A stretch of 64,000 bases of DNA, from NCBI GenBank assembly GCA_965248925.1, contig CBDFLE010000005.1, positions 607,135 through 671,134 on the forward strand, given 5' to 3'. A program made the translations under genes and the position numbers. This document shows, piece after piece, positions 51,262 to 62,790 of this stretch. The notes beneath the pieces are model-generated. The model made no database searches and had not been told where the DNA came from. It was given only the letters and a program-made list of their open reading frames with translations. Each line of letters opens with the position of its first letter. The stretch's first letter is position 1. This DNA is from Candidatus Multivoradales bacterium. GTDB lineage: Bacteria > Acidobacteriota > Thermoanaerobaculia > Multivoradales > J023.

Positions 51262-53148
51262 TCAATCTCCCAACAGCAGTTTGAGTCCTTCGATCTTCTG
51301 ATTGATCTCCCCTAAGCCAAGATCGCGGTAGCGGTTGGGTAGGAAGCGGCTGTCGGTGCATTCCTTGGTGGCCACCAAATCCATCAACTGCAAGCGCTCG
51401 ATGTGGGCCGAGGGGCGCATCTCCTCGATCACCCCGGAGACTATTTCGGCCACCGGCTTGGCACTCTCGCCTTCATCTTGGGTCGCGTGTAAGCGCAAGG
51501 CGCGCACCAGGATGCCTTCCATCTCGTTACCGCCGATCTGGTTGTTGTCGGGCAGGGGAGGCAGGTCTTGTTGGTCGATCTCGAGTCCGACTTTGCGAGT
51601 CATGGCCCAGAACAGCTCGTGACGGCTCTCGGCGTCGCCAGGGGGGAAGAGGGGAATGTGCACATCGAGCCGGCCTTGGCGCTTGAGGTCGACCTCCAGC
51701 AGGTCGGGGCGGCTGGTGGCGAAGACCCACAAGATCTTGCCGCGGTTGCGGGTGTCGCTCATCTCCTTGGCCAGCATGCCGTAAATGCGGCCGGAAAGGC
51801 CCGAATCACTCGAATCGCCGCCTCGCTTGCCGGTCATCTGATCGGCTTCGTCGACGAAGACGATCACCTGGCCCAGAGCGCGCAAGATGGTGAAGATGCG
51901 CTCCAGGTTGCCCTCGGTGGCACCCACCCAACGTTCGCGAAAGTTTTTCATTTCGACCACCGGGATGCCGACTTCTCCGGCCCAGCAAGTCACTAAGAAA
52001 GTCTTGCCGGTGCCGATGCGACCGCAGAGCAAGTAACCCATGGGCAGGGCGCGAGTGCGGCCGGCTTTGAGCAAGGCGGCGTCTTGGCGCAACCAGGCTT
52101 TGGCCTCGTGATGGCCGGCGACATCGTCGAGGGTGCGCTTCGACTCGATGAAGGCAATGCGGCCGAAGGCCTCCTTCTCGATCAGCTCTTTCTTCACTCG
52201 CGTCAAGTAGTCGCTGGTGATGCGCTCGTCGCCTTCGAGAGCCCGCCGCACCAGGGAGCGGACGTTGACCCGCGACAGGCCTACCAACTTGGCGGCCAAG
52301 GCTTCACGATCGACTTCGCAAACATGCTCGAAGTCTGCCACCTGGTCGGTTAGGTGGTGGACGAAGCGGCGGATCTCAGCCGCCTTGGGCAGAGTCAGTT
52401 TGATTTTTGACGAATAAGGGCTCTCGACCAGCAGCCGGTTGAGATCGGCCAGGTTCTCGGTGATCAGTACGTTGGCGATCACCGCCTGGGTGATCGACGG
52501 ATCGGAGCCCCAGTCGAGCAGCCGAATCAGGGTCTGGCTGAGATCACCCGAGAGGTGCAGGGCTTCGCCCTGGGGGGCGATGAAGTGGGCATAGTCGATC
52601 ACCACGGCTACTTTCAGTGGCGCCCGCACCCGCTGACCCTGGTCGTCGAGGTCGGTGCGGTGCTGGCTGCCGCGGATGAAGCGATCGATGATCTCCAACG
52701 CCCGCTTGGCGTCGCGCGGCAGCTGGTTGGCTAGGTTCAGGGTCTCCATCTTGTCCTTGCCGGTGCTGGGCAGGGAGGCCCAAGAGGTACCCTGGAAGGT
52801 GTCAAAGGCCTTGAGGAAACGATGCACATGGTCGCCGCCCTTGCGCACCCGGATGCCGCGGCCGCGGTCGTAGTGCAGCACGACATCGAAGGGAGCGAAC
52901 ATCACCTCGGTGAGGAAGGTGCGCAGCGAGACGTAACGCTCTCCCTTGGCCCCGGTGGCGGCCGGCGCGGCGACTTCGTCGGCATCGCCAAACGCATCAC
53001 GGCGCGGATCGCCGGCTAGAGGGCCCGCCGGCGCTGGCGCCGGCACCAGATCAGCGACGTTGCCATAGAGGATGAACTGGCTCGCCGAACCGCTGCGAAA
53101 GACATTGCGCATTTCCCCGGCCCAGGCCGGCAAGGAGGCTTCGCTCAT
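51262..53148 (-). CDS. AAA+ ATPase, classic clade, single C-terminal AAA module with about 350-aa N-terminal region of unknown function
   Basis: Walker A 'GRIGTGKTF', Walker B 'VIVFVDEADQM', sensor-1/SRH region 'ILWVFATSRPDLLEVDLKRQGRLD' (second-region-of-homology Arg). The spacing 'VEMKNFRERWVGATEGNLERIF' between the Walker motifs resembles Vps4/katanin/FtsH-type modules. Last gene of the pspA operon. Confidence 0.8.
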   Translation of the reverse strand: MSEASLPAWAGEMRNVFRSGSASQFILYGNVADLVPAPAPAGPLAGDPRRDAFGDADEVAAPAATGAKGERYVSLRTFLTEVMFAPFDVVLHYDRGRGIRVRKGGDHVHRFLKAFDTFQGTSWASLPSTGKDKMETLNLANQLPRDAKRALEIIDRFIRGSQHRTDLDDQGQRVRAPLKVAVVIDYAHFIAPQGEALHLSGDLSQTLIRLLDWGSDPSITQAVIANVLITENLADLNRLLVESPYSSKIKLTLPKAAEIRRFVHHLTDQVADFEHVCEVDREALAAKLVGLSRVNVRSLVRRALEGDERITSDYLTRVKKELIEKEAFGRIAFIESKRTLDDVAGHHEAKAWLRQDAALLKAGRTRALPMGYLLCGRIGTGKTFLVTCWAGEVGIPVVEMKNFRERWVGATEGNLERIFTILRALGQVIVFVDEADQMTGKRGGDSSDSGLSGRIYGMLAKEMSDTRNRGKILWVFATSRPDLLEVDLKRQGRLDVHIPLFPPGDAESRHELFWAMTRKVGLEIDQQDLPPLPDNNQIGGNEMEGILVRALRLHATQDEGESAKPVAEIVSGVIEEMRPSAHIERLQLMDLVATKECTDSRFLPNRYRDLGLGEINQKIEGLKLLLGD

Positions 53149-53153
53149 CGGGT

Positions 53154-54029
53154 CTATTCTCCTTGTAGGGCGCTGGGTAGGCGAGGCAAATCGGGGACCG
53201 GGCTGTCGAGTTCGCTGCCCAAGTCACCCAGCAAGTCGGCGTGCTGTTCCATCCACAAGCTGGTCTCCTGCATTGATGAGCTGACCTGATCGAGGCGACT
53301 CGACAGCTGATCGGCGCCGCCGCTGACCGCGGTCTCCTCACGGATCAACTCGACTTGGCCCTCGATGCGCCGCAACTCGGCATCAATCACATCGAGACTC
53401 TCGCGGGCGCGGGCGAAATTATCTAGCCGCTTGCCGGTGATCTCCAACGTGCTCCGCAGCGATCGCGCCAACGCCGGTTGGGCCTCGGCGTCGATTCCTT
53501 CCAGCCGCTCTTCGAGTCGGGTGATCTCGCCGCGCAGGCCGTCCGGGTTGAGATTGTGCAGGTTGGCCATGATCGCCCGCCGCGATGAGAGCAGGCGGAG
53601 AAAGATCCGCAGCATCTGGTTGAGGCCATGATTTCGTAGTTCGCCGACGTTGCCCAGGCTGTCTCCACGGTCCTGGCGCAAACCGAGAATGCGGCGACAC
53701 TGGTCGAGCAGCTGGCGATAGCGCTGCCTGCTGTCTGCCGATAGACGGCTCAAGGTGTCACCGATTCTGGCCTCATAGTTCTCTTGCACCGCCAGCAAGC
53801 GTTCGCCCTGAATCAACTTTTGAAACCTGGCACTGCTGGCCATCCCGAAGAGGTAGGTCAACTCGCCAGCAGCCCCCAGCAGCCAGAAGCCGGGATTGGC
53901 GATACCCAGCACGCCGAAGATGCCCAAGGCCATCCAATTGGCCGGCAACTGGCCCAGCAGTGGCAGGCTAGCCCTGCGGCTGAAGGCTTCCTTCAGATAG
54001 TCGCCGAATCCGAGCGGCCTCGCCATCAA
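53154..54029 (-). CDS. Membrane protein with 2 N-terminal TM helices and a long C-terminal coiled-coil region (TelA/XpaC-like architecture)
   Basis: TMs '[33 protein letters not shown]'. Heptad-rich C-terminus ('[20 protein letters not shown]...[17 protein letters not shown]'). 4-nt overlap with the upstream ABC ATPase gene and a 5-nt gap to the AAA+ gene. Confidence 0.5.
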
Positions 54030-54904
54030 TCTGCCTCTGCTTTTGCCAGGGTCCTCGCCACCTCGCGCACCGCGTCGCGAAAATCACTGCGCTCCTGCAC
54101 CAACAGCGGATCGGCCAAGCGATCGGGAGGGAAGATATCGTCGAAAGTGTGGGCGATAGTGCCTGGTGCCGAAGACATTACCCACACCCGGTCACCGAGG
54201 TAGACCGCCTCGGAAAGGGAGTGGGTGATCAGGAAAACGGTGGCCTCGACCTCGTGCCAGAGTTCGGTGATCAAGCGCTGCATTTCATAGCGAGTAGGTT
54301 CGTCCAAAGCCGAGAAAGGCTCGTCCATCAAGATAATGCGCGGCTTGAGCACCAGGGTGCGAGCGATCGCCACCCGCTGCTGTTGGCCGCCGGAGAGCTG
54401 CTTGGGGTACTTCTTCTCGTGCCCATCGAGGCCCACTCGGCGGATCAGCTGCATCGCCCGGTCTTCCATTTCCGAGCGGCTCAAGCCCAGCTCGCGCTTG
54501 GCCAGTTCGAGACCGAAAGTGACGTTACGCAGCACGGTGAGGTGGGGAAAAGAGCTGTAGCGCTGAAAAATCTGGCCCCGGTCACGGCCCGGCCCGGTGA
54601 CTTCCTGGCCGCGAACCTTCACCGAGCCCCGAGTCGCCGGATAGACGTCGGGGAAGCCCTGAATCAGATTGAAAATCGTTGACTTGCCACAGCCGGAAGG
54701 GCCGATCAGCGAGATGAACTCTCCCTTGTCTTTGACATCCTCGACGCGAAAATCAACATCGCGAATGGCGGTGTAGGCACGCGCCGTGCCGGGATTGAAG
54801 GTCTTCTCAACGCTGGCGAATTCCACCACCGGCGGTTCTTGACTCGCCAATCCGGCCGTTGCCTGGCCGGCTGCCGCGCCAGCCTTCTCCTGGGAGCCAC
54901 TCAT
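54026..54904 (-). CDS. ABC transporter ATP-binding protein (NitT/TauT nitrate/sulfonate/bicarbonate-type)
   Basis: Walker A 'GPSGCGKST', signature '[13 protein letters not shown]', Walker B '[11 protein letters not shown]', H-loop 'ITHSL'. Confidence 0.9.
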
Positions 54905-55932
54905 CGATGGGCCTCACGGTAGGGAAAGAGCTTGTGGCCGAGCATCTGCCACAGCTTGTCGGTGAGGAAGGCGACGGTCACGATCAGCAGAATGATCAAA
55001 TAGATGTGCGGGCGGAGTTCGCCGCGGCGCTGTGAAATGAGGATCATGCCGCCGACTCCCTTGCCGATGTCGACCATCTCGACCAGGATGATGTAGCTCC
55101 AACCGATGCCAAAACCGAGGCGCATGGCCTGGAAGACATCTTGCCACGACACCGCCAGCAGCACCTTCAAGACCGCTTGTAGCTTGCTGGCGCCGAGGGT
55201 GTAAGCGGTCTTGAGATAGATCTCGTCGACCCCTTCCACCGCGGCGACGATCAACGGCAACATGTAGATCGAGAAGGCCATGGCCAGAAAAGCGACCTTC
55301 TGCTTTTCGTCAGTGCCGAAGAGACTCAAACTGAGTGGCACCAGGGCGGGAATCGGCAAGTAGGCGCCGAAAACCGCCAGCGGGTTGAACATCGCCTTGA
55401 TCTTGCTGAAAGCACCCATCAACAGACCCAGGGGAAAGGCGATCGCCAATCCCACCGCGAATCCTGCTAGCACTCGGCCGAATGAAATTCCCAGATGGCG
55501 GACCACCGCCCGATCGAACCACAGGGAGGGGAAGGACCGCGCCACCTCCAGTGGACTGGGGAGGATGACCGAGGAGATCATCCGCGATTCCACCGTCGGG
55601 CCGGCGGTCACCCCCCACCACAGAGCGAGGAGGGCGAGGATTGGCGTCAGACCCAACAGCCAATGCATCCAAGTAGGTACGTCTTCGCGAATGCGCAGCC
55701 AGCCGAAGGGGCCGCGCGAGGGTGGAGGAGCGCCCGCCTCGAGCAGTTCGTCAACCTCTTCCTGGTCGGTAGCCGCCCCTTCTTCGTCACTCTGGCTAGG
55801 CTCGTCGCCGTCGTTGTAGAACAAAGACAGCAGGCCGCCGTCGTCGTCTTCCTCCGCTGTGGTTGGGTTGCCGGCGGCGGATGCATCGACGGGCGACGGC
55901 GGCTGGCGCCTATCTTGGCCGCGATCACTCAA
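54901..55932 (-). CDS. ABC transporter permease (NitT/TauT family) with acidic N-terminal extension
   Basis: 6 TM. EAA-like loop '[24 protein letters not shown]'. About 90-aa D/E-rich cytoplasmic N-terminus. 4-nt overlaps on both sides. Confidence 0.85.
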
Positions 55933-55936
55933 GGCT

Positions 55937-57667
55937 CTACTGTGACTCCGGCGGGTAAACCGAGACCTCGACCCGACGGTTCAAGGCGTGGTTGTCGGCA
56001 TCGCCGAGATCGGCGGGTTCGTTCCAGCCCATCCCTTCGATGACGAATTTGTTGGGATCGAACTGATACTTCTCGACCAAGACCCTACCCACCGCTTCGG
56101 CGCGCTCGGCGGAAAGCTGCTTCACGTCCTCGAAGCGCACCCCACGGCCGCGCATTGACCCGTCAGTGTGGCCGACGATGGCCACCACCGCGCGCTCGTA
56201 TTGGCCGGCCAGTCGGGCGACTCTTTCGAGGGTGCCGTCGACCGTCGGATCGTAGAGCGTGCCGGTCAAGCCATTACCGTCGTCATCGTGCTTCGGCTCG
56301 TAGAGATTCGATGAGTTGGGGTAGAAGTTGATGCGGATGGTCTGGGTCAGAATCGGCGACTCGGCCCGCACCTTGGAGTAGGTGGTGGGCACGAAGCTGG
56401 TGTGGTATTCATCCTTCTGATGGGCGAAAGTGCCTTCGCTGTCGAGGGCCTTAAGGATGCTGAAGTCCATCACTTCATCAAAGCGGGCCGGCGTGCCGAT
56501 CAGGCCCAACTCGCGGTAAACAAAGGTGATGTTCTTCCAGGTCCGCTCGAAGTTGGCGGGCTCGTTCTGGTTGAGGAAGAACGCCTTGTTCTCGGCGAAG
56601 TTGGTGCGGTGGGCGTCGGCTTCCATGCCTTGCACCTCACCGACGGGCATGCCGTAGCCCTCAGACATCCATTGGAAAGCGTTGGCCTTGAAGCTGTCGT
56701 CCTGGCCCAGCTGTTCCATCGCCTTGAAGATCCCCGATACCAATCCCTTGACGATCTCCGGGTGATCCTTAGCGAAGTCGGCCCGCACCGCCCAGATATC
56801 GGCGATCAGCTTGTTGGCTTCCACCGTGGTGGTGAGAATCTTGGTGCCGGCGACCTTCTCCGGGATGTTGTAGATGTCCGGTGCCCAGGAGACACAAGCG
56901 TCGATCGATTTGTCGGCGACAAAAGCGGCCGCCGCCTCGAACGCGCTGGCAGTGAACTTGTGGTTGATCTCGCTCGGTTGAATGCCGGCATTGAGCAGCA
57001 GGTTGTTGAGGAAGTATTGCGAGGGGCTGTTCTGAGCATAGACCACCGTCTTGCCTCGCAGATCCTCGGCGGTCTCGATGTTGCCGCGCACGACGATGCC
57101 ATCGCCACCGTTGGACCAGTCGATCAGCTGCGGGATGCGGGGCGCGGTGCGTGAGTCCTGCATCAAGCCGGGGGCGAAGAGCACCATCATGTCCAGGGTG
57201 CCCCACAACACATGGCTATTGCCCGAGGCATAGGCGTCGCGGGCCACCACCGGATCGTCGATCAACTTCAGATTAACCTTGAAGCCGTGCTCCTTGAAGA
57301 AGATGCTGTCCTCGTTGGGAGCGAAACCACCGTTGGCGGCGACGATCGGCAACCAGCCAATCCAGACATTGATCGGGAACTGGACAACTTTTTCGCTGTC
57401 GTCCCACTTGTAGTTGCTGACCCCCTGTACCGGAGGCAGCTTCTCTGACGCCACGTAGGCGTATTCGTTGACTGTCGTCACCCCCTGAGTGTCGGGAGCC
57501 TCGATCAGCTGCTGGTCTTTGAACGCAGCCAAGTCGATGTCTGCACTGCCCTTGCCTGAAGGCGCGATCAGGTCGCGAAAGTAGTAACCCGCGCCACCGA
57601 GCAGCGCCAGGATGAAGAGTAGAAGCACCAACTTGCCGAGAGCAGTCGGTCCGGTTTTTTCAGCCAT
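55937..57667 (-). CDS. Fusion protein: NitT/TauT-type ABC substrate-binding domain + C-terminal OmpA-like peptidoglycan-binding domain
   Basis: N-terminal TM/signal anchor. About 330-aa SBP region. C-terminal 'AVVAIVGHTDGSMRG...LSAERAEAVGRVLVE...NRRVEVSVYP', the OmpA/MotB signature. Confidence 0.72.
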   Translation of the reverse strand: MAEKTGPTALGKLVLLLFILALLGGAGYYFRDLIAPSGKGSADIDLAAFKDQQLIEAPDTQGVTTVNEYAYVASEKLPPVQGVSNYKWDDSEKVVQFPINVWIGWLPIVAANGGFAPNEDSIFFKEHGFKVNLKLIDDPVVARDAYASGNSHVLWGTLDMMVLFAPGLMQDSRTAPRIPQLIDWSNGGDGIVVRGNIETAEDLRGKTVVYAQNSPSQYFLNNLLLNAGIQPSEINHKFTASAFEAAAAFVADKSIDACVSWAPDIYNIPEKVAGTKILTTTVEANKLIADIWAVRADFAKDHPEIVKGLVSGIFKAMEQLGQDDSFKANAFQWMSEGYGMPVGEVQGMEADAHRTNFAENKAFFLNQNEPANFERTWKNITFVYRELGLIGTPARFDEVMDFSILKALDSEGTFAHQKDEYHTSFVPTTYSKVRAESPILTQTIRINFYPNSSNLYEPKHDDDGNGLTGTLYDPTVDGTLERVARLAGQYERAVVAIVGHTDGSMRGRGVRFEDVKQLSAERAEAVGRVLVEKYQFDPNKFVIEGMGWNEPADLGDADNHALNRRVEVSVYPPESQ

Positions 57668-57717: not shown

Positions 57718-58476
57718 TCAGCCTTCACTGACGCCGGGGCCCATGTCCTTGATTGGGACCGCAGATTCTGCGGCCGGGGCGGCGCTCTCGTCCACCGGCA
57801 TATCGAGGCCATAGGTAGCGGCGAACTCGGCCAGCGCCTGGTCGGCCAGCGCAGCTTGTTCGGCGTCTTTGAGGTCCACTTCACTGATGTCGATCGAGGA
57901 CTCGGCGACCCGCGCTCGGCCAGCGGCCTTGTCACGGCGCTCGGTGAGGTAGTCCTCAACACGGTTCAGGGTGTCGCCGGATCCGCCGATCTCGGTGATC
58001 ATGCCCTGGGCCATCTCTTGCAGTTCGGCCTGGGCTTCGAGCATCTGCGTTTCGCTGAGCATGCGCTTCAACGAATCGATCTTGGCCTGCGCCTCGCGCA
58101 CCGCCACATCGCGGGACTTGACCAGCTTCTTGTAGGTGCCATCGGCGGCCTCGAGCTGGCCGCGATTCTCCTCCAACTGCTCACGCACCGTCTTCAGTTG
58201 CAAGGCGTACTGGCCGGCGGCGGCGCGATTGCCCACTTTGAGGTTGGCGGCGGCCTTGGCGGCCAGCTGGCTGTCCTGCTTCTCCAGATTCTTGACCTGG
58301 CGCATCAAGCGCTCGACAAAGGCCGCGTGATTGGCCAGGCTCTCGTTGAAGCGCGAGATCTGACTGCGAAGGTTCTCCTTCTCGGCCTCGATCAAGGCCC
58401 GCGGGTTGGACTTCTCGATGCCGGAGATAAACAGGCTCAGGAAGCCCTTGAAGAGGTTGCTGAGGCGTCGAAACAT
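57718..58476 (-). CDS. pspA: PspA/IM30 (Vipp1) family protein
   Basis: 253 aa from 'MFRRLSNLFKGFLSLFISGIEKSNPRALIEAEKENLRSQ', matching the PspA/Vipp1 N-terminal amphipathic helix and helix alpha1. Coiled-coil throughout. AAGGAGA RBS. The ORF-track 58617 start is a non-coding extension that runs through the promoter. Confidence 0.8.
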   Translation of the reverse strand: MFRRLSNLFKGFLSLFISGIEKSNPRALIEAEKENLRSQISRFNESLANHAAFVERLMRQVKNLEKQDSQLAAKAAANLKVGNRAAAGQYALQLKTVREQLEENRGQLEAADGTYKKLVKSRDVAVREAQAKIDSLKRMLSETQMLEAQAELQEMAQGMITEIGGSGDTLNRVEDYLTERRDKAAGRARVAESSIDISEVDLKDAEQAALADQALAEFAATYGLDMPVDESAAPAAESAVPIKDMGPGVSEG

Positions 58477-58608
58477 GGGCGGCGTCTCCTTCAGACACCG
58501 CGGCTTCCTCGAAGGCTGGCCGCGGCTCGCGTCGTTCGCCGGGGAGGGTAGCGGAGCAGCAAAGCGCCCGGCATCGTACGTGGTGAATTTCAATCGTGGG
58601 GCGATTCT

Positions 58609-58625
58609 AGCAAACATCTAGCCAA
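58609..58625 (-). promoter_or_regulatory. Candidate sigma-54 (-24/-12) promoter for the pspA operon: TTGGCTAgatgtTTGCTa on the minus strand
   Basis: GG and GC dinucleotides at exactly the consensus spacing (TGGCAC-N5-TTGCW; mismatches only at -22/-21), about 135 bp upstream of the pspA start. A 6-bp-arm inverted repeat GCCACC-N6-GGTGGC (58641-58658) lies 16 bp further upstream. Confidence 0.45.
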
Positions 58626-58871: not shown

Positions 58872-60326
58872 CTAGGGCGAAACGCTAGTCCACTCGCTGG
58901 TACTGTTGGACTCGAAGCCATCCTCGAAGATCTTGCCAACGGTGCCGGTGTTAACGGTGATACCGAAACCCGTAGCGGTAGCGAAATCGACGCTGACCGA
59001 GATTGACGCGGCGGCATCGACAAAAGTTTCGCCAACCGTCCACATGGTACCCGCATTGTCACCGAAATTGGCCGGGGGATCGGCATCGTCCACCGCCCAA
59101 GAGGGTTCCGAGCGACCGACCACTACCTGGTGGATAATCACCGCGTCGCCGACGAGTGCTGCTTCGTAGTCGCCGCCGCGCAGCCGAGCTTCGACTGTGT
59201 ACCAATGCGAGCTATCGATCGCAATACGCACCAATTGAAAATTGCTGGCGCCGATCAGAGAAGTGCGGTCGAGCAAGATCTCGGTGCTGCTGTCGGCCGG
59301 CGGCTCGAAGCGCCGCGCCGGCGCGAACCAACCGAGGGAGTCCTTGTGGTAGGCATTCACATGCTTGCCCAACCGGCCGTAGGTGCCGTCCACGACGGAG
59401 TAGGAGGTGGCAGAACTCATCACGTCCCAAGGGCTGTCGTAGGGATTGGAATCGCCGTCAAAATTGTTGGCGTGGGGTAGGCCGAATCCATGTCCCATCT
59501 CGTGGGCGATCACCCCTTCGTCGGCGTAGCCCCAGGGCGGCTCCCAAGTCGTGCGCCAAGTCTTCGCCACCCCATCGAGGGTGGCGAAGCGGCTGCCGCC
59601 CCAAGCGCAACAGTCAAGCAAGCCGTTGAGCATGATGTTGATGCCTGCGAAGGGATTGCCGCCGCCCGAGAAGTCGACAAACGGGTCCGCCGCGGCTGTG
59701 CAATCGTTGAAAATAAGATTCAGGTTGGCGTTGGTACCGCTGCCCGGAGTGGGTACGTAGCTGTTATGGGTACCGGGTAGGGCCACCCAATCTATTGCCG
59801 TCGAGCCGATGATGTCGATTTGGCCGGCTGAGACCTCACGCCAAAAGTGATCCAGCCCGCCGGGTGCGTTGGCATACATGCCGTTGAAGAAACCCTGGTC
59901 CCGCGGCTCGGTAGCTACGTCCGAGAACTTACACAGCAACGATACCCAGGGCTGGGAACCGCTGACTACCCCACGCGCATCAGTTTCGCCGAGCAAGCGG
60001 ATGGCGGCGACGTCAAAGTGCTGCTCGCCAGCGGCGGCTTGGGCGGCGAGGCGGGGGAAAACCCGCACGCGCCGACCGTCCCATCTGGCCACGCCACCGC
60101 GCAGCAACTCGAAGCTCATGCTCAGCTCCCGGCTGACTCCTTGTTCGTCGGTGAGCAGAATCCTGCGCGGGGTGGCGATTACGGCACCGGGCTGCGAATC
60201 GCCCCAGACGATGCTCAACCAACCGACTACGGAGGGCGCGAGGTCAGCGGCGAGCGTCGGGGCCGCCAGCAGCATGGTCAGCAGACAGAAGGCGGCGGAG
60301 CACGATGGCACTTTGAAGGAGGTCAT
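58872..60326 (-). CDS. Secreted zinc metalloprotease with metzincin-type HEXXHXXGXXH motif
   Basis: Signal peptide 'CLLTMLLAAPTLAAD'. 'VIAHEMGHGFGLPHANNFDG' zinc-binding motif. Large N-terminal pro/beta region. C-terminal about 90-aa beta domain ending 'FEDGFESNSTSEWTSVSP'. Confidence 0.72.
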   Translation of the reverse strand: MTSFKVPSCSAAFCLLTMLLAAPTLAADLAPSVVGWLSIVWGDSQPGAVIATPRRILLTDEQGVSRELSMSFELLRGGVARWDGRRVRVFPRLAAQAAAGEQHFDVAAIRLLGETDARGVVSGSQPWVSLLCKFSDVATEPRDQGFFNGMYANAPGGLDHFWREVSAGQIDIIGSTAIDWVALPGTHNSYVPTPGSGTNANLNLIFNDCTAAADPFVDFSGGGNPFAGINIMLNGLLDCCAWGGSRFATLDGVAKTWRTTWEPPWGYADEGVIAHEMGHGFGLPHANNFDGDSNPYDSPWDVMSSATSYSVVDGTYGRLGKHVNAYHKDSLGWFAPARRFEPPADSSTEILLDRTSLIGASNFQLVRIAIDSSHWYTVEARLRGGDYEAALVGDAVIIHQVVVGRSEPSWAVDDADPPANFGDNAGTMWTVGETFVDAAASISVSVDFATATGFGITVNTGTVGKIFEDGFESNSTSEWTSVSP

Positions 60327-60445: not shown

Positions 60446-61627
60446 CTAGTTGAAATCGATCTGGTAGCGGCCTTCAGCCATCAGCAGGACGGCCTGATCG
60501 TGTTCAAAGTGCAGCTCAACAGCAAGCACTTCAACCCTTGGTTGGGTTTCCCGCAGATAGACCCGATCGATGTGCACCACTGCTTCGGGTCGGCTGAAAT
60601 CAGCCGCGCCTACCTGCCCGCCGAAGTGGTCGCTGCGTCCGAAGGCGATGTGCAGACCCAGTTTCTCGTCGAGCAGAATCTCACCTACCGGGCGGACGCC
60701 GAAATCCGCCAGCACTCCCAGGCCAAGTTCGGCCAAATTGCCATAGGCCGGCTCGGCACTCAGGCGGGCAGCCTCGCTTTTGGCGACCGCTCCCCCAGCC
60801 TCAACCGCCACCGCTCGATTGCGGTCGATACGGTAGATCACAACTTCGCCGTCCAGCTCCACTGGCAGGGTGCCGGCACTAAGGCTGGGATCGCCATCCT
60901 GCTCCCCTTCATAGGGCACGATGTAGGACTCGCCGGAGGGCAGGTTGCCGGCGTTACCCGGCTCTGGCAGCAGGCCGCCCGAAGCGTGGGCGGTGCGGTG
61001 GCGCAAGTCGAGAATCAGCCGATGAGTCTTGCCGGCGGCAGCGAAGCGAAGCTCGGCTCGCTGGGCGCGGTCGAGCAAGCCCTTCAGCAGCCGCACTCGA
61101 CGATCGATCTCCACGTAGTCGAGGCGCAGCGCCGGCACCATGGCGCTGCTGAAACCGGGCAAAGTGGCGGCCCGCAGCTGGTGCCGCGGCGCCGCCAGCT
61201 TAAGCGGTGCGGTGGTCGACAGTTCAGTGGGTGCCAGCAGCAGGTCGAGGCGGTTGAAAATCTCACTGAAGGACTCGCCGCGGTTGGGATCGAGCTGATC
61301 CGCATCGGTAGGCAGGTCGCCTGCCTGGTAACGCCAGGCGGTCGCTGGCAAGTCGGCGTTGTTCCGCCGCGCGTTGCGATAGAGGTAGAGTTCGATTTCC
61401 AGCCCTAGCTGGTCCTGTTGGGCGCGGAGACGCTGATACCAATCGAGCGCCATTTGCCGCCGCTTCTGCCAGCCGGAATGGTCGGCCAGTTGGGCATCCG
61501 GCAGATCGGTGATGACCGCTAACCGACGATCCTCGTCACGCAAGCTGAAAACCCGGCGGACAAGATCGACCAGCTCGTCATCAGAGAGCCGCAGATCACT
61601 GGTAGAGGCGGCGGGGGAGTAGGTCAT
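60446..61627 (-). CDS. Hypothetical protein, possibly M29-family (aminopeptidase T-like) aminopeptidase
   Basis: About 394 aa, the same size class as M29 enzymes. 'GNLPSGESYIVP' resembles the conserved GNxPsGE block of aminopeptidase T/PepS. The assignment is from memory only. Confidence 0.35.
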   Translation of the reverse strand: MTYSPAASTSDLRLSDDELVDLVRRVFSLRDEDRRLAVITDLPDAQLADHSGWQKRRQMALDWYQRLRAQQDQLGLEIELYLYRNARRNNADLPATAWRYQAGDLPTDADQLDPNRGESFSEIFNRLDLLLAPTELSTTAPLKLAAPRHQLRAATLPGFSSAMVPALRLDYVEIDRRVRLLKGLLDRAQRAELRFAAAGKTHRLILDLRHRTAHASGGLLPEPGNAGNLPSGESYIVPYEGEQDGDPSLSAGTLPVELDGEVVIYRIDRNRAVAVEAGGAVAKSEAARLSAEPAYGNLAELGLGVLADFGVRPVGEILLDEKLGLHIAFGRSDHFGGQVGAADFSRPEAVVHIDRVYLRETQPRVEVLAVELHFEHDQAVLLMAEGRYQIDFN

Positions 61628-61647
61628 CAGTGGATCCTCACCACGGC

Positions 61648-62790
61648 TCAAACCGATGCCGCCAGCTCGACCAACCTGTCGCCGATGACTGCTACACGCC
61701 AGCCGCGAAGCGCCTCGGGGAGAATCATCTCGCTGCCTTCGAGGCTGCGACGCAGAGTGTCTTCCACGCTGCGTCGGTTGGACAGCAGCTCTGGCGGGAC
61801 ATTGAGCTCAGCAGCCACGGCACTGACCTCCTGGCGCATCCTCGCCACGGTGCTCTTGTAGGGTCGCAAATCCGCGCCCTGGGAGAGGTCGGGGGGCAGG
61901 CACTCCTCGGCTAAGGAGCGTGCATCGGCGACCAACTGTAAGATTCTGGCACCGTAGCGTTGCACCAAGCCTGCCTCCATGCCCCTTATCTGGCTCAACT
62001 GACGCTGGGTTTCTGGCATCCGCTGGGCAATGTCGACCAGCAGATGTTCGTGGATGACGAAGTTGCGAGGTAGATCCCGGCTTCGAGCTTGCTCCTCGCG
62101 CCAAGCGGCGAGCTGCTGCAAGGCGCCGCGGCGTCGCCGGTCGAGGCGGCCACCGCCCTTGATCTTGCGATAGACCTGCTCCGGCTCAGGTAGGAAACGG
62201 TGCGGGTCCATCAATCCCTCAAGATCCTCCTGCAACCAACTCAGCCGGCCGAGCTGCTCGAGTTCGGCACTCAGTAAGCGATGCAGCGGCAGCAGGTAGA
62301 GCACATCGAGCGCGGCGTAGCGTAGCTGGGCCGCGGACAAAGGACGTCGGGTCCAGTCGGTGCGGGTCTCTCCCTTGGGCAGGGCAACGCCGAAAAAGCG
62401 CTCGACCAAGCGGCTATAGCCCAGCGAGTAGCCATGACCGGCGAAGGCGGCGGCGAGCTGGGTGTCGAACAAAGGCCGTGGAAAATCGTCGCCCAGGCGA
62501 TGTAGGACTTCGAGATCTTCGCTGCAAGAATGGAAGACCTTGGCCACCTCTCGGTTGGCCAGCAGCTCCAAGAGGGGTGTCAGATCCAGTTGCAGAGGAT
62601 CGACCAACCAGATCTGTTGCTCGGTCGCCACTTGCAGCAGACCGAGACGGGCGTAGAAGGTGCGCGTACGCACAAACTCGGTATCCAAGGCTAAAGCACT
62701 GGCGTCTTGCCACTGGGCAGCGGCCTGGTTGAGTTCATCCTGGTTTTTCACCAGAGTGGATGCGAGTTGGGGAATCGTTTCAGCGGTCAT
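61648..62790 (-). CDS. rnd: Ribonuclease D
   Basis: DEDDy 3'-5' exonuclease domain 'LALDTEFVRTRTFYARLGLLQV...VFHSCSEDLEVL...QLRYAALDVLYL'. HRDC-type C-terminal region. 381 aa from the ATG at 62790. Confidence 0.8.
   Translation of the reverse strand: MTAETIPQLASTLVKNQDELNQAAAQWQDASALALDTEFVRTRTFYARLGLLQVATEQQIWLVDPLQLDLTPLLELLANREVAKVFHSCSEDLEVLHRLGDDFPRPLFDTQLAAAFAGHGYSLGYSRLVERFFGVALPKGETRTDWTRRPLSAAQLRYAALDVLYLLPLHRLLSAELEQLGRLSWLQEDLEGLMDPHRFLPEPEQVYRKIKGGGRLDRRRRGALQQLAAWREEQARSRDLPRNFVIHEHLLVDIAQRMPETQRQLSQIRGMEAGLVQRYGARILQLVADARSLAEECLPPDLSQGADLRPYKSTVARMRQEVSAVAAELNVPPELLSNRRSVEDTLRRSLEGSEMILPEALRGWRVAVIGDRLVELAASV

Follow-up and report, generated by a model that had tools for sequence, protein, structure and literature searches.

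A substrate-binding protein fused to a predicted peptidoglycan-binding domain within a conserved six-gene PspA cassette of uncultured bacteria

Why would the substrate-binding protein (SBP) of an ATP-binding cassette (ABC) importer carry a domain of the kind that binds the cell wall, and what is its gene doing in an operon with PspA? The question is raised by a single gene in a 64,000-nucleotide stretch of DNA from a Candidatus Multivoradales bacterium (Acidobacteriota; assembly GCA_965248925.1, contig CBDFLE010000005.1, positions 607,135 to 671,134 of the forward strand), referred to in what follows as the window. Positions 55937..57667 of its minus strand form one uninterrupted open reading frame (ORF) that encodes a 576-residue SBP-OmpA fusion protein, the second gene of a cassette that reads, along the minus strand, PspA, SBP-OmpA, permease, ABC ATPase, a 291-residue membrane protein (h291) and an AAA+ ATPase. 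Our preferred answer, to which we assign a probability of roughly 0.5, is that the fusion is the tethered substrate-binding subunit of a working importer that is integral to a PspA-based membrane-maintenance module in which the AAA+ protein recycles PspA. The basis of this answer is the architecture of the fusion, its intact wall-binding residues, the intact motifs of the ATPases, an invariant synteny and a conserved ligand pocket. The feature itself is already known from comparative genomics (Ravi et al. 2024, mSystems, PMC11237479), and the window is one more instance of it.

The original prediction, made from the letters of the window, had placed a NitT/TauT-type SBP and an OmpA/MotB-type C-terminus in one chain and had read the segment NRRVEVSVYP as an OmpA/MotB signature, and both statements are borne out. 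Two Pfam profiles score above their thresholds, PF09084 (NMT1/THI5-like) over residues 123-319 (E 4.3e-8, 33.8 bits against a cut-off of 20.5) and PF00691 (OmpA) over residues 474-559 (E 5.3e-9, 36.8 bits against 27.2), and NRRVEVSVYP, at residues 563-572, closes the OmpA-C-like domain. Weaker Pfam matches are to the related families Phosphonate-bd, NMT1_2 and OpuAC. Sequence searches of the PDB match the SBP domain to TauA (6ssy, E 2.3e-11) and the tail to the C-domain of Acinetobacter baumannii OmpA (3TD3, E 3.3e-6), PomB and YiaD, while NCBIfam returns only sub-threshold scores, for the SBP part with the putative urea SBP model TIGR03427 (64.6 against 333.9 bits), SsuA and TauA and for the C-terminal part with TssL, YiaD and MotB. 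The parts of the chain, as we delimit them, are as follows.

57581..57643 (-): N-terminal hydrophobic helix, residues 9-29, a helix in the AlphaFold2 model with a hydropathy segment at residues 5-23 and no lipobox
57497..57580 (-): flexible tether, residues 30-57, in which the predicted local distance difference test score (pLDDT) falls under 50 from residue 34 to residue 57
56435..57496 (-): residues 58-411, a periplasmic binding-protein domain and the structured extension on its N-terminal side, assigned from Pfam, the PDB match and Foldseek
56351..56434 (-): inter-domain linker, residues 412-439, modelled with confidence and conserved in the window's subfamily
55955..56350 (-): residues 440-571, an OmpA-C-like peptidoglycan-binding domain that contains GHTD (D502), LSxxRA (R522) and NRRVE (563-567)

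The structural model agrees with this division. Calculated with AlphaFold2 from a 65-sequence alignment that reaches down to 49% identity, it has a mean pLDDT of 87.2 and a predicted template modelling score (pTM) of 0.82; an earlier model, built from 25 sequences at 75-84% identity, gave a mean pLDDT of 52.7 and was discarded. From the N-terminus there follow the helix (9-29), the disordered tether (34-57), the structured extension with a two-lobe alpha/beta domain (~58-411), a short ordered linker and a beta-alpha-beta-alpha-beta-beta module (440-571). Compared with the PDB by Foldseek, the model finds Escherichia coli TauA at the top (E 5.5e-17, TM-score 0.78 on the target), then SsuA, ThiY, Thi5, NrtA/CmpA and PqqT. 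The protein thus combines the features of a NitT/TauT-type SBP, namely a profile match above threshold, the class II two-lobe fold and an adjoining cognate BPD_transp_1 permease and ABC ATPase. Its N-terminal helix may be either a signal anchor or a signal peptide; Ravi et al. label the corresponding segment of a counterpart 'SIG' (PMC11237479).

A fusion of this kind could in principle arise from a sequencing or assembly error that joins two separate genes, which had been named in advance as the finding that would overturn it. This explanation can be set aside, as full-length fusions recur widely and the linker at residues 412-439 is both conserved and confidently modelled. A protein search returned 5941 matches at E<1e-5. 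The best 120 of these, all 572-582 residues long and 75-84% identical to the query, align over 99-100% of it, and both Pfam domains are present in nearly all of them. An exhaustive search of representatives clustered at 50% identity gave 2834 matches (210 below 1e-30), among them single-stretch, full-length matches of ~510-607 residues down to ~30% identity, and among genomes sampled at one per species 253 encode a relative; orthologues do, then, keep the fusion, as the original prediction had proposed checking. The best 80 of these genomes belong to Thermoanaerobaculia, Vicinamibacteria, Holophagae, Gemmatimonadota, Eisenbacteria, Krumholzibacteriota and 'Delta-' and Gammaproteobacteria. In the window the GC content of the fusion gene is uniform with that of its neighbours. 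Relatives are named in the databases 'NitT/TauT family transport system substrate-binding protein' or 'phosphate ABC transporter substrate-binding/OmpA family protein', the latter being unsupported as a statement of specificity.

Are the residues that would bind the wall intact? Conservation was counted over 60 sequences, the window protein and 59 full-length representatives with 29-61% identity to it. The positions concerned are kept in nearly all of them (D502 in 56/60, R522 in 58/60, R564 in 58/60 and R565 in 56/60), and D502 and R522 are invariant in two further family alignments (A1 and A4). In a sequence alignment D502 (in GHTD) and R522 (in LSxxRA) fall on the corresponding motifs of 3TD3. 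In A. baumannii OmpA the diaminopimelate (DAP) of peptidoglycan is bound by Asp271 and Arg286 (PMC5974059), and we take D502 and R522 as their equivalents from the positions of the motifs and not from residue numbering. The near-invariance of this putative peptidoglycan-binding Asp/Arg pair across the fusion family is new here and supports the earlier proposal that the SBP would be tied to peptidoglycan.

The second set of conserved residues lies in the ligand pocket, which we located by way of a HMMER alignment to TauA and the published ligand contacts of TauA (PMC6906117; structure 6SSY). The contacts Gly61, Gly79, Glu106, Thr132, Trp176 and Asp205 of TauA fall on P139, D159, D189, P215, W261 and D290, respectively, P215 being flanked by S214 and S216. 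In this mapping both of the acidic positions that contact the amine in TauA are retained, a third Asp (D159) takes the place of one sulfonate-contacting glycine and the other glycine is a proline; of the sulfonate contacts of TauA (Gln30, Gly61, Gly79, Thr132), Gly61, Gly79 and Thr132 are replaced by P139, D159 and P215. Among the same 60 sequences S185 and P263 are kept in all, D189 in 59, D159 in 57, W102 in 55, D290 in 54 and W261 in 53, and the TauA and SsuA equivalog models of NCBIfam score well short of their cut-offs (NF008553, 44 against 490 bits; TIGR01728, 53 against 163.5). One specific pocket, acidic and Trp-containing, thus appears near-invariant across the whole fusion family, an observation that we add here. 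Since the acidic positions are kept and the sulfonate glycines replaced, we infer that the ligand is probably one small, cationic or amine-bearing molecule and not a sulfonate. The wall- or envelope-derived ligand of the original prediction is at most a speculative possibility.

The proximity to PspA that had been pointed out at the start turns out to be stronger than was claimed, the fusion gene lying inside a PspA operon with synteny in essentially every related locus; the Cdc48-like AAA+ ATPase and the TM coiled-coil protein of this operon went unmentioned there. The genes of the cassette are closely packed and translationally coupled, with 50 bp between PspA and the fusion gene, 4 bp between the fusion gene and that of the permease, and 4-bp overlaps or spacings of 4-5 bp at the other junctions. 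Besides the fusion gene the cassette comprises the following.

57718..58479 (-): PspA/IM30 family protein, 253 residues from its probable start M47 (PF04012, E 2.5e-10)
54901..55932 (-): ABC permease of the BPD_transp_1 family, TauC/SsuC/SaoP-like, with 6 hydrophobic segments and an uncertain start codon
54026..54904 (-): TauB-like ABC ATPase (PF00005, E 3.4e-29), with a 4-bp overlap with each neighbour
53154..54029 (-): h291, a 291-residue protein with a transmembrane (TM) hairpin and a coiled coil, outside any Pfam family and corresponding to the 'SIG+TM+Snf7' protein in Ravi et al.
51262..53148 (-): classical AAA+ ATPase of 628 residues (PF00004 over residues 373-499, E 8.7e-25)

To establish synteny, all six proteins of the cassette were compared by tblastn with 81 related loci that had been selected by similarity to the SBP protein and that come from metagenome-assembled genomes (MAGs) of Acidobacteriota, Gemmatimonadota, Eisenbacteria, Krumholzibacteriota and Pseudomonadota. 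Order and strand are the same throughout, with PspA found in 79 of the loci (directly upstream of the fusion gene in all 79), the permease in 77, the ATPase in 76, h291 in 73 and the AAA+ protein in 65; members that are absent mostly coincide with contig ends, and 64 loci hold complete cassettes with conserved gene content and order. A branch whose fusion protein is 49% identical to that of the window has the same cassette. The flanking genes of the window (M6-like peptidase, 401-residue ORF, RNase D) are not conserved beside the cassette elsewhere. At L083 and L084 (6350..10677) two SBP-OmpA paralogues, of 597 and 558 residues, flank PspA, with permease, ATPase, TM protein and AAA+ following; the second paralogue is upstream of PspA, and the 558-residue one is labelled by one source as belonging to a Candidatus Ozemobacter-type MAG.

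The two energy-consuming components look intact in sequence. The ABC ATPase has a Walker A motif, Q-loop, signature LSGGQQQR, Walker B ILMDEP and H-loop, and scores 194.7 bits with the TauB-like NCBIfam model, below the equivalog cut-off. In the AAA+ protein the Walker A and B motifs, a WVG pore loop and the arginines of the second region of homology can be recognized by eye, and the C-terminal module is closest to D2 of VAT/Cdc48/p97/Afg2 (PDB 5vc7, VAT, E 2.3e-34); its N-terminal 340 residues match no family, which fits a degenerate module without proving one.

The remaining members call for some comment on where they begin and end. The mechanically derived ORF of PspA (57718..58617 (-), 299 residues) is over-long, and M47 (58479) is probably the true start because the PF04012 match begins at residue 48 and homologues are ~253-254 residues long. 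The N-terminal amphipathic helix of PspA is conserved (MFRRLSNLFKGFLSLF). Near its other end is a conserved C-terminal helix, AEQAALADQALAEFAATYGL (~57805..57864 (-), residues ~206-225 of the 253-residue form), followed by a variable tail; by analogy with the MIM motifs of ESCRT-III, AEQAALADQALAEFAATYGL could be a candidate recruiter of the neighbouring AAA+ protein. Residues 1-85 of the permease (55678..55932 (-)) form a strongly acidic, low-complexity N-terminal extension, and the true start codon may lie further downstream than annotated. The extension was considered as a conserved recruitment tail and rejected, its length and composition varying across loci; it is specific to the window.

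The operon that Ravi et al. describe (PspA / PBPB+OmpA / permease / ABC-ATPase / TM+Snf7 / inactive-AAA+AAA; example OGG56892.1 from Candidatus Handelsmanbacteria, operon in their Table S3; PMC11237479) is the same as that of the window in its six genes, their order and the architecture of the fusion, and we see no substantive difference. We were not able to reproduce the 'divergent Snf7 domain' of the TM protein with HMMER or hhalign. Those authors also proposed that membrane remodelling is linked to solute transport (PMC11237479). Pocket conservation, the relative conservation of the cassette members and a subfamily that lacks the AAA+ gene are not part of their account and are added here.

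In terms of relative conservation, the fusion protein stands at the head of the cassette. Median identities to the window proteins fall from 74% (fusion) through 68% (ATPase), 65% (permease) and 64% (AAA+ protein) to 51% (h291), a ranking that is partly biased by the choice of loci according to similarity to the SBP protein. When loci are compared all against all the fusion is the most conserved member in 550/741 pairs, and in the divergent cassette fusion and ATPase are equal at 49%, with the permease at 33%. The binding proteins of ABC importers usually diverge fastest, so the high conservation of SBP-OmpA is unusual. That it is the most conserved cassette member, as judged from these identities, is also new here.

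The association with PspA-type proteins appears to reach beyond the cassette. Distant fusion proteins of ~510-545 residues, ~30% identical to that of the window, form a cluster of their own, and in the corresponding metagenome loci (L085-L137, for example L090, 6930..12988) the fusion gene is followed by permease and ATPase genes, with no gene for AAA+ or h291. The layout is a ~230-residue protein, a ~340-residue protein, SBP-OmpA, permease and ATPase, the first two being a recurring upstream pair of which the shorter is a soluble coiled coil and the longer has two TM segments and a coiled coil. PF04012 (PspA_IM30) matches 12/20 members of the ~340-residue family (best E 2.6e-4), and a profile of this family has Vipp1 chains as its top PDB matches, in one consistent register and at a marginal E of ~0.015. 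The ~230-residue protein was also considered as PspA-like and rejected, its matches being coiled-coil noise only. Because this AAA+-less subfamily still adjoins a PspA/IM30-like gene, the data are suggestive of a link between wall-anchored SBP transporters and PspA/IM30-type proteins that extends beyond the window's cassette, an observation that is new here. One neighbour in the distant subfamily carries a Por_Secre_tail domain, so the subfamily probably belongs to Bacteroidota. A single distant locus, L135 (1127..7924), has a weak PspA-like ORF and an AAA+ gene after the transporter in a hidden Markov model (HMM) scan; a separate ORF listing puts the ORFs of that region on the opposite strand.

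How, then, might the parts work together? In the reading that we favour the fusion would be the SBP of a TauABC-like (NitT/TauT family, type I) importer. Its N-terminal helix would hold it at the inner membrane, or at least export it, and its C-terminal OmpA-like domain would bind DAP-type peptidoglycan. Between membrane and wall the SBP domain would capture a specific small ligand, probably cationic or amine-bearing, and pass it to the permease dimer. The transporter would be a fixed, co-inherited part of a cassette with PspA, the TM coiled-coil protein and the Cdc48/VAT-like AAA+ protein, import would be coordinated with the assembly of PspA polymers at the same patch of membrane, on its cytoplasmic side, and the AAA+ protein would disassemble or recycle PspA, as Vps4 does ESCRT-III. 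Such a scheme is in line with the connection of membrane remodelling to solute transport that Ravi et al. put forward.

A number of points weigh against this reading. We found no experimental work on any member of the cassette in the literature, and the best 80 of the 253 genomes are all MAGs, every listed relative coming from uncultured organisms. Co-regulation of the transporter with PspA is an alternative to mechanistic coupling, and if the helix at residues 9-29 were cleaved as a signal peptide the fusion would be exported and not anchored. The pocket positions derive from a sequence alignment to TauA at 20% identity and not from coordinates, and the selection of loci by their SBP protein partly biases the apparent conservation of the fusion. 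Finally, h291 could not be linked to PspA or Snf7: hhalign gives a probability of 0.3% against PspA, a family of 27 h291 members has no Snf7 or PspA Pfam match at E<=10 and an h291 profile retrieves coiled-coil noise only from the PDB.

The main rival holds that the doubly tethered SBP-OmpA protein is a strut or sensor that spans from membrane to wall and that the ABC engine transduces a signal instead of carrying out net import. Docking on the permease would then be set by the distance between membrane and wall, or by a ligand that reports the state of the wall, and would gate the ATPase cycle, the resulting signal telling PspA, h291 and the AAA+ protein where to assemble. Several of the observations above speak for it. 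SBP-OmpA is more conserved than the ABC ATPase, which is unusual for a nutrient SBP and hints at numerous constraints from its structure or its contacts with other proteins; the flexible tether has a length of only ~25 residues, with SBP and OmpA parts modelled as one confident unit (pTM 0.82); the PspA/IM30-like link is invariant in two subfamilies that are only ~30% identical; and the cassette has no catabolic or assimilatory gene for any solute. Yet the permease has the BPD_transp_1 fold of ordinary type I importers, whose only established function is import, the pocket is conserved and of a small-molecule type, and mechanotransduction by this class of ABC protein is without precedent, so that we consider the strut or sensor doubtful.

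At the other extreme the cassette might encode an ordinary importer that takes up a nutrient (sulfonate, nitrate, phosphonate or urea), with a wall anchor that is incidental and an adjacency to PspA that has no functional significance. The best family matches, TauA/SsuA and the putative urea SBP TIGR03427, and the NCBI name that calls relatives phosphate-binding, would be in keeping with such a role. All NCBIfam equivalog scores are far under their cut-offs, however (the urea and TauA models among them), the sulfonate glycines are lost (P139 stands in place of G61 and D159 in place of G79), and chance adjacency offers no explanation for a six-gene synteny that is retained across several phyla while the flanks vary. 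Synteny, failed equivalog tests and a replaced sulfonate site together make a coincidental nutrient importer very improbable, and we retain the tethered importer as the preferred reading.

Comparison with better-known systems helps to locate what is distinctive about the cassette. With E. coli TauABC and SsuABC it shares the two-lobe, class II fold of the SBP, its permease and ATPase resemble TauC and TauB, and the hinge Glu106, Trp176 and Asp205 of TauA have the counterparts D189, W261 and D290 in the window protein. TauA, however, has no OmpA domain and is free in the periplasm, the window protein lacks Gly61 and Gly79 and falls below the equivalog cut-offs, and the sulfur-assimilation context of TauABC is absent around the cassette. 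MotB/PomB, long-form TssL, YiaD and the A. baumannii OmpA C-domain (3TD3) have in common with the fusion an OmpA-C-like domain, the DAP-binding Asp/Arg pair and NRRVE, and MotB and TssL also share its topology of N-terminal membrane helix and C-terminal wall-binding domain; where stators and secretion baseplates have a plug or linker, the periplasmic spacer of the window protein is a complete SBP for an ABC transporter. The Psp system of E. coli (pspF-pspABCDE) likewise has a PspA/IM30 effector with an N-terminal amphipathic helix, whereas the window cassette has neither PspF, PspB or PspC genes nor a conserved sigma-54 promoter, and its ATPase is a Cdc48-like AAA+ protein and not a bacterial enhancer-binding protein. 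Archaeal 'Meth_adaptin' ESCRT loci, which include a gene for the substrate-binding protein ProX (Makarova et al. 2024, PMC10936438), also link an ABC-type SBP to an ESCRT-III-superfamily protein and a Vps4/Cdc48-type AAA+ protein. They differ in being archaeal, in having a ProX/OpuAC SBP and no OmpA domain, and in that no permease or ATPase is reported, and we would regard them as an independent parallel, an analogy and not a homology of systems.

Two further candidates were considered and rejected. Regulation from a sigma-54 promoter, as for E. coli pspA, finds one sigma-54-like site with 2 mismatches at 58609-58624 (-); matches over the window as a whole occur at the level of chance, and those upstream of PspA in 77 loci score as shuffled sequences do. 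PADLOC gives generic matches only (ZorB/MotB, 26 bits; IetA, 38 bits; a mad3 ABC protein), and a known anti-phage defence system was dismissed. Upstream of the cassette are genes for a secreted M6-like metallopeptidase (58872..60326 (-); HEMGH motif, weak Pfam matches) and for a 401-residue protein with no Pfam family (60446..61651 (-)). No rRNA is present in the window.

What would the cassette mean for the bacteria that carry it? It pairs PspA with a classical Cdc48-like AAA+ protein in several phyla of uncultured bacteria, while according to a 2025 review a Vps4-like ATPase appears to be absent in bacteria (PMC7619361). An ambitious extension, which we consider unlikely, is that the cassette is a bacterial, wall-referenced counterpart of the ESCRT-III/Vps4 machine, in which SBP-OmpA would signal to the ABC engine the condition or distance of the nearby wall, or the presence of a cationic ligand derived from it. 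The ATPase cycle of the engine would then direct PspA to polymerise where the membrane is damaged or detached, and the Cdc48-like AAA+ protein would recycle the polymer. If true, this would mean that peptidoglycan, an ABC transporter and a polymer of the ESCRT-III superfamily are physically and directly coupled, and would contradict the view that bacteria lack a Vps4-like partner for PspA (PMC7619361). Should the parts act together, the state of the wall, solute transport and membrane repair would be joined in one module; the cassette is real and non-trivial, and is worth testing as a system.

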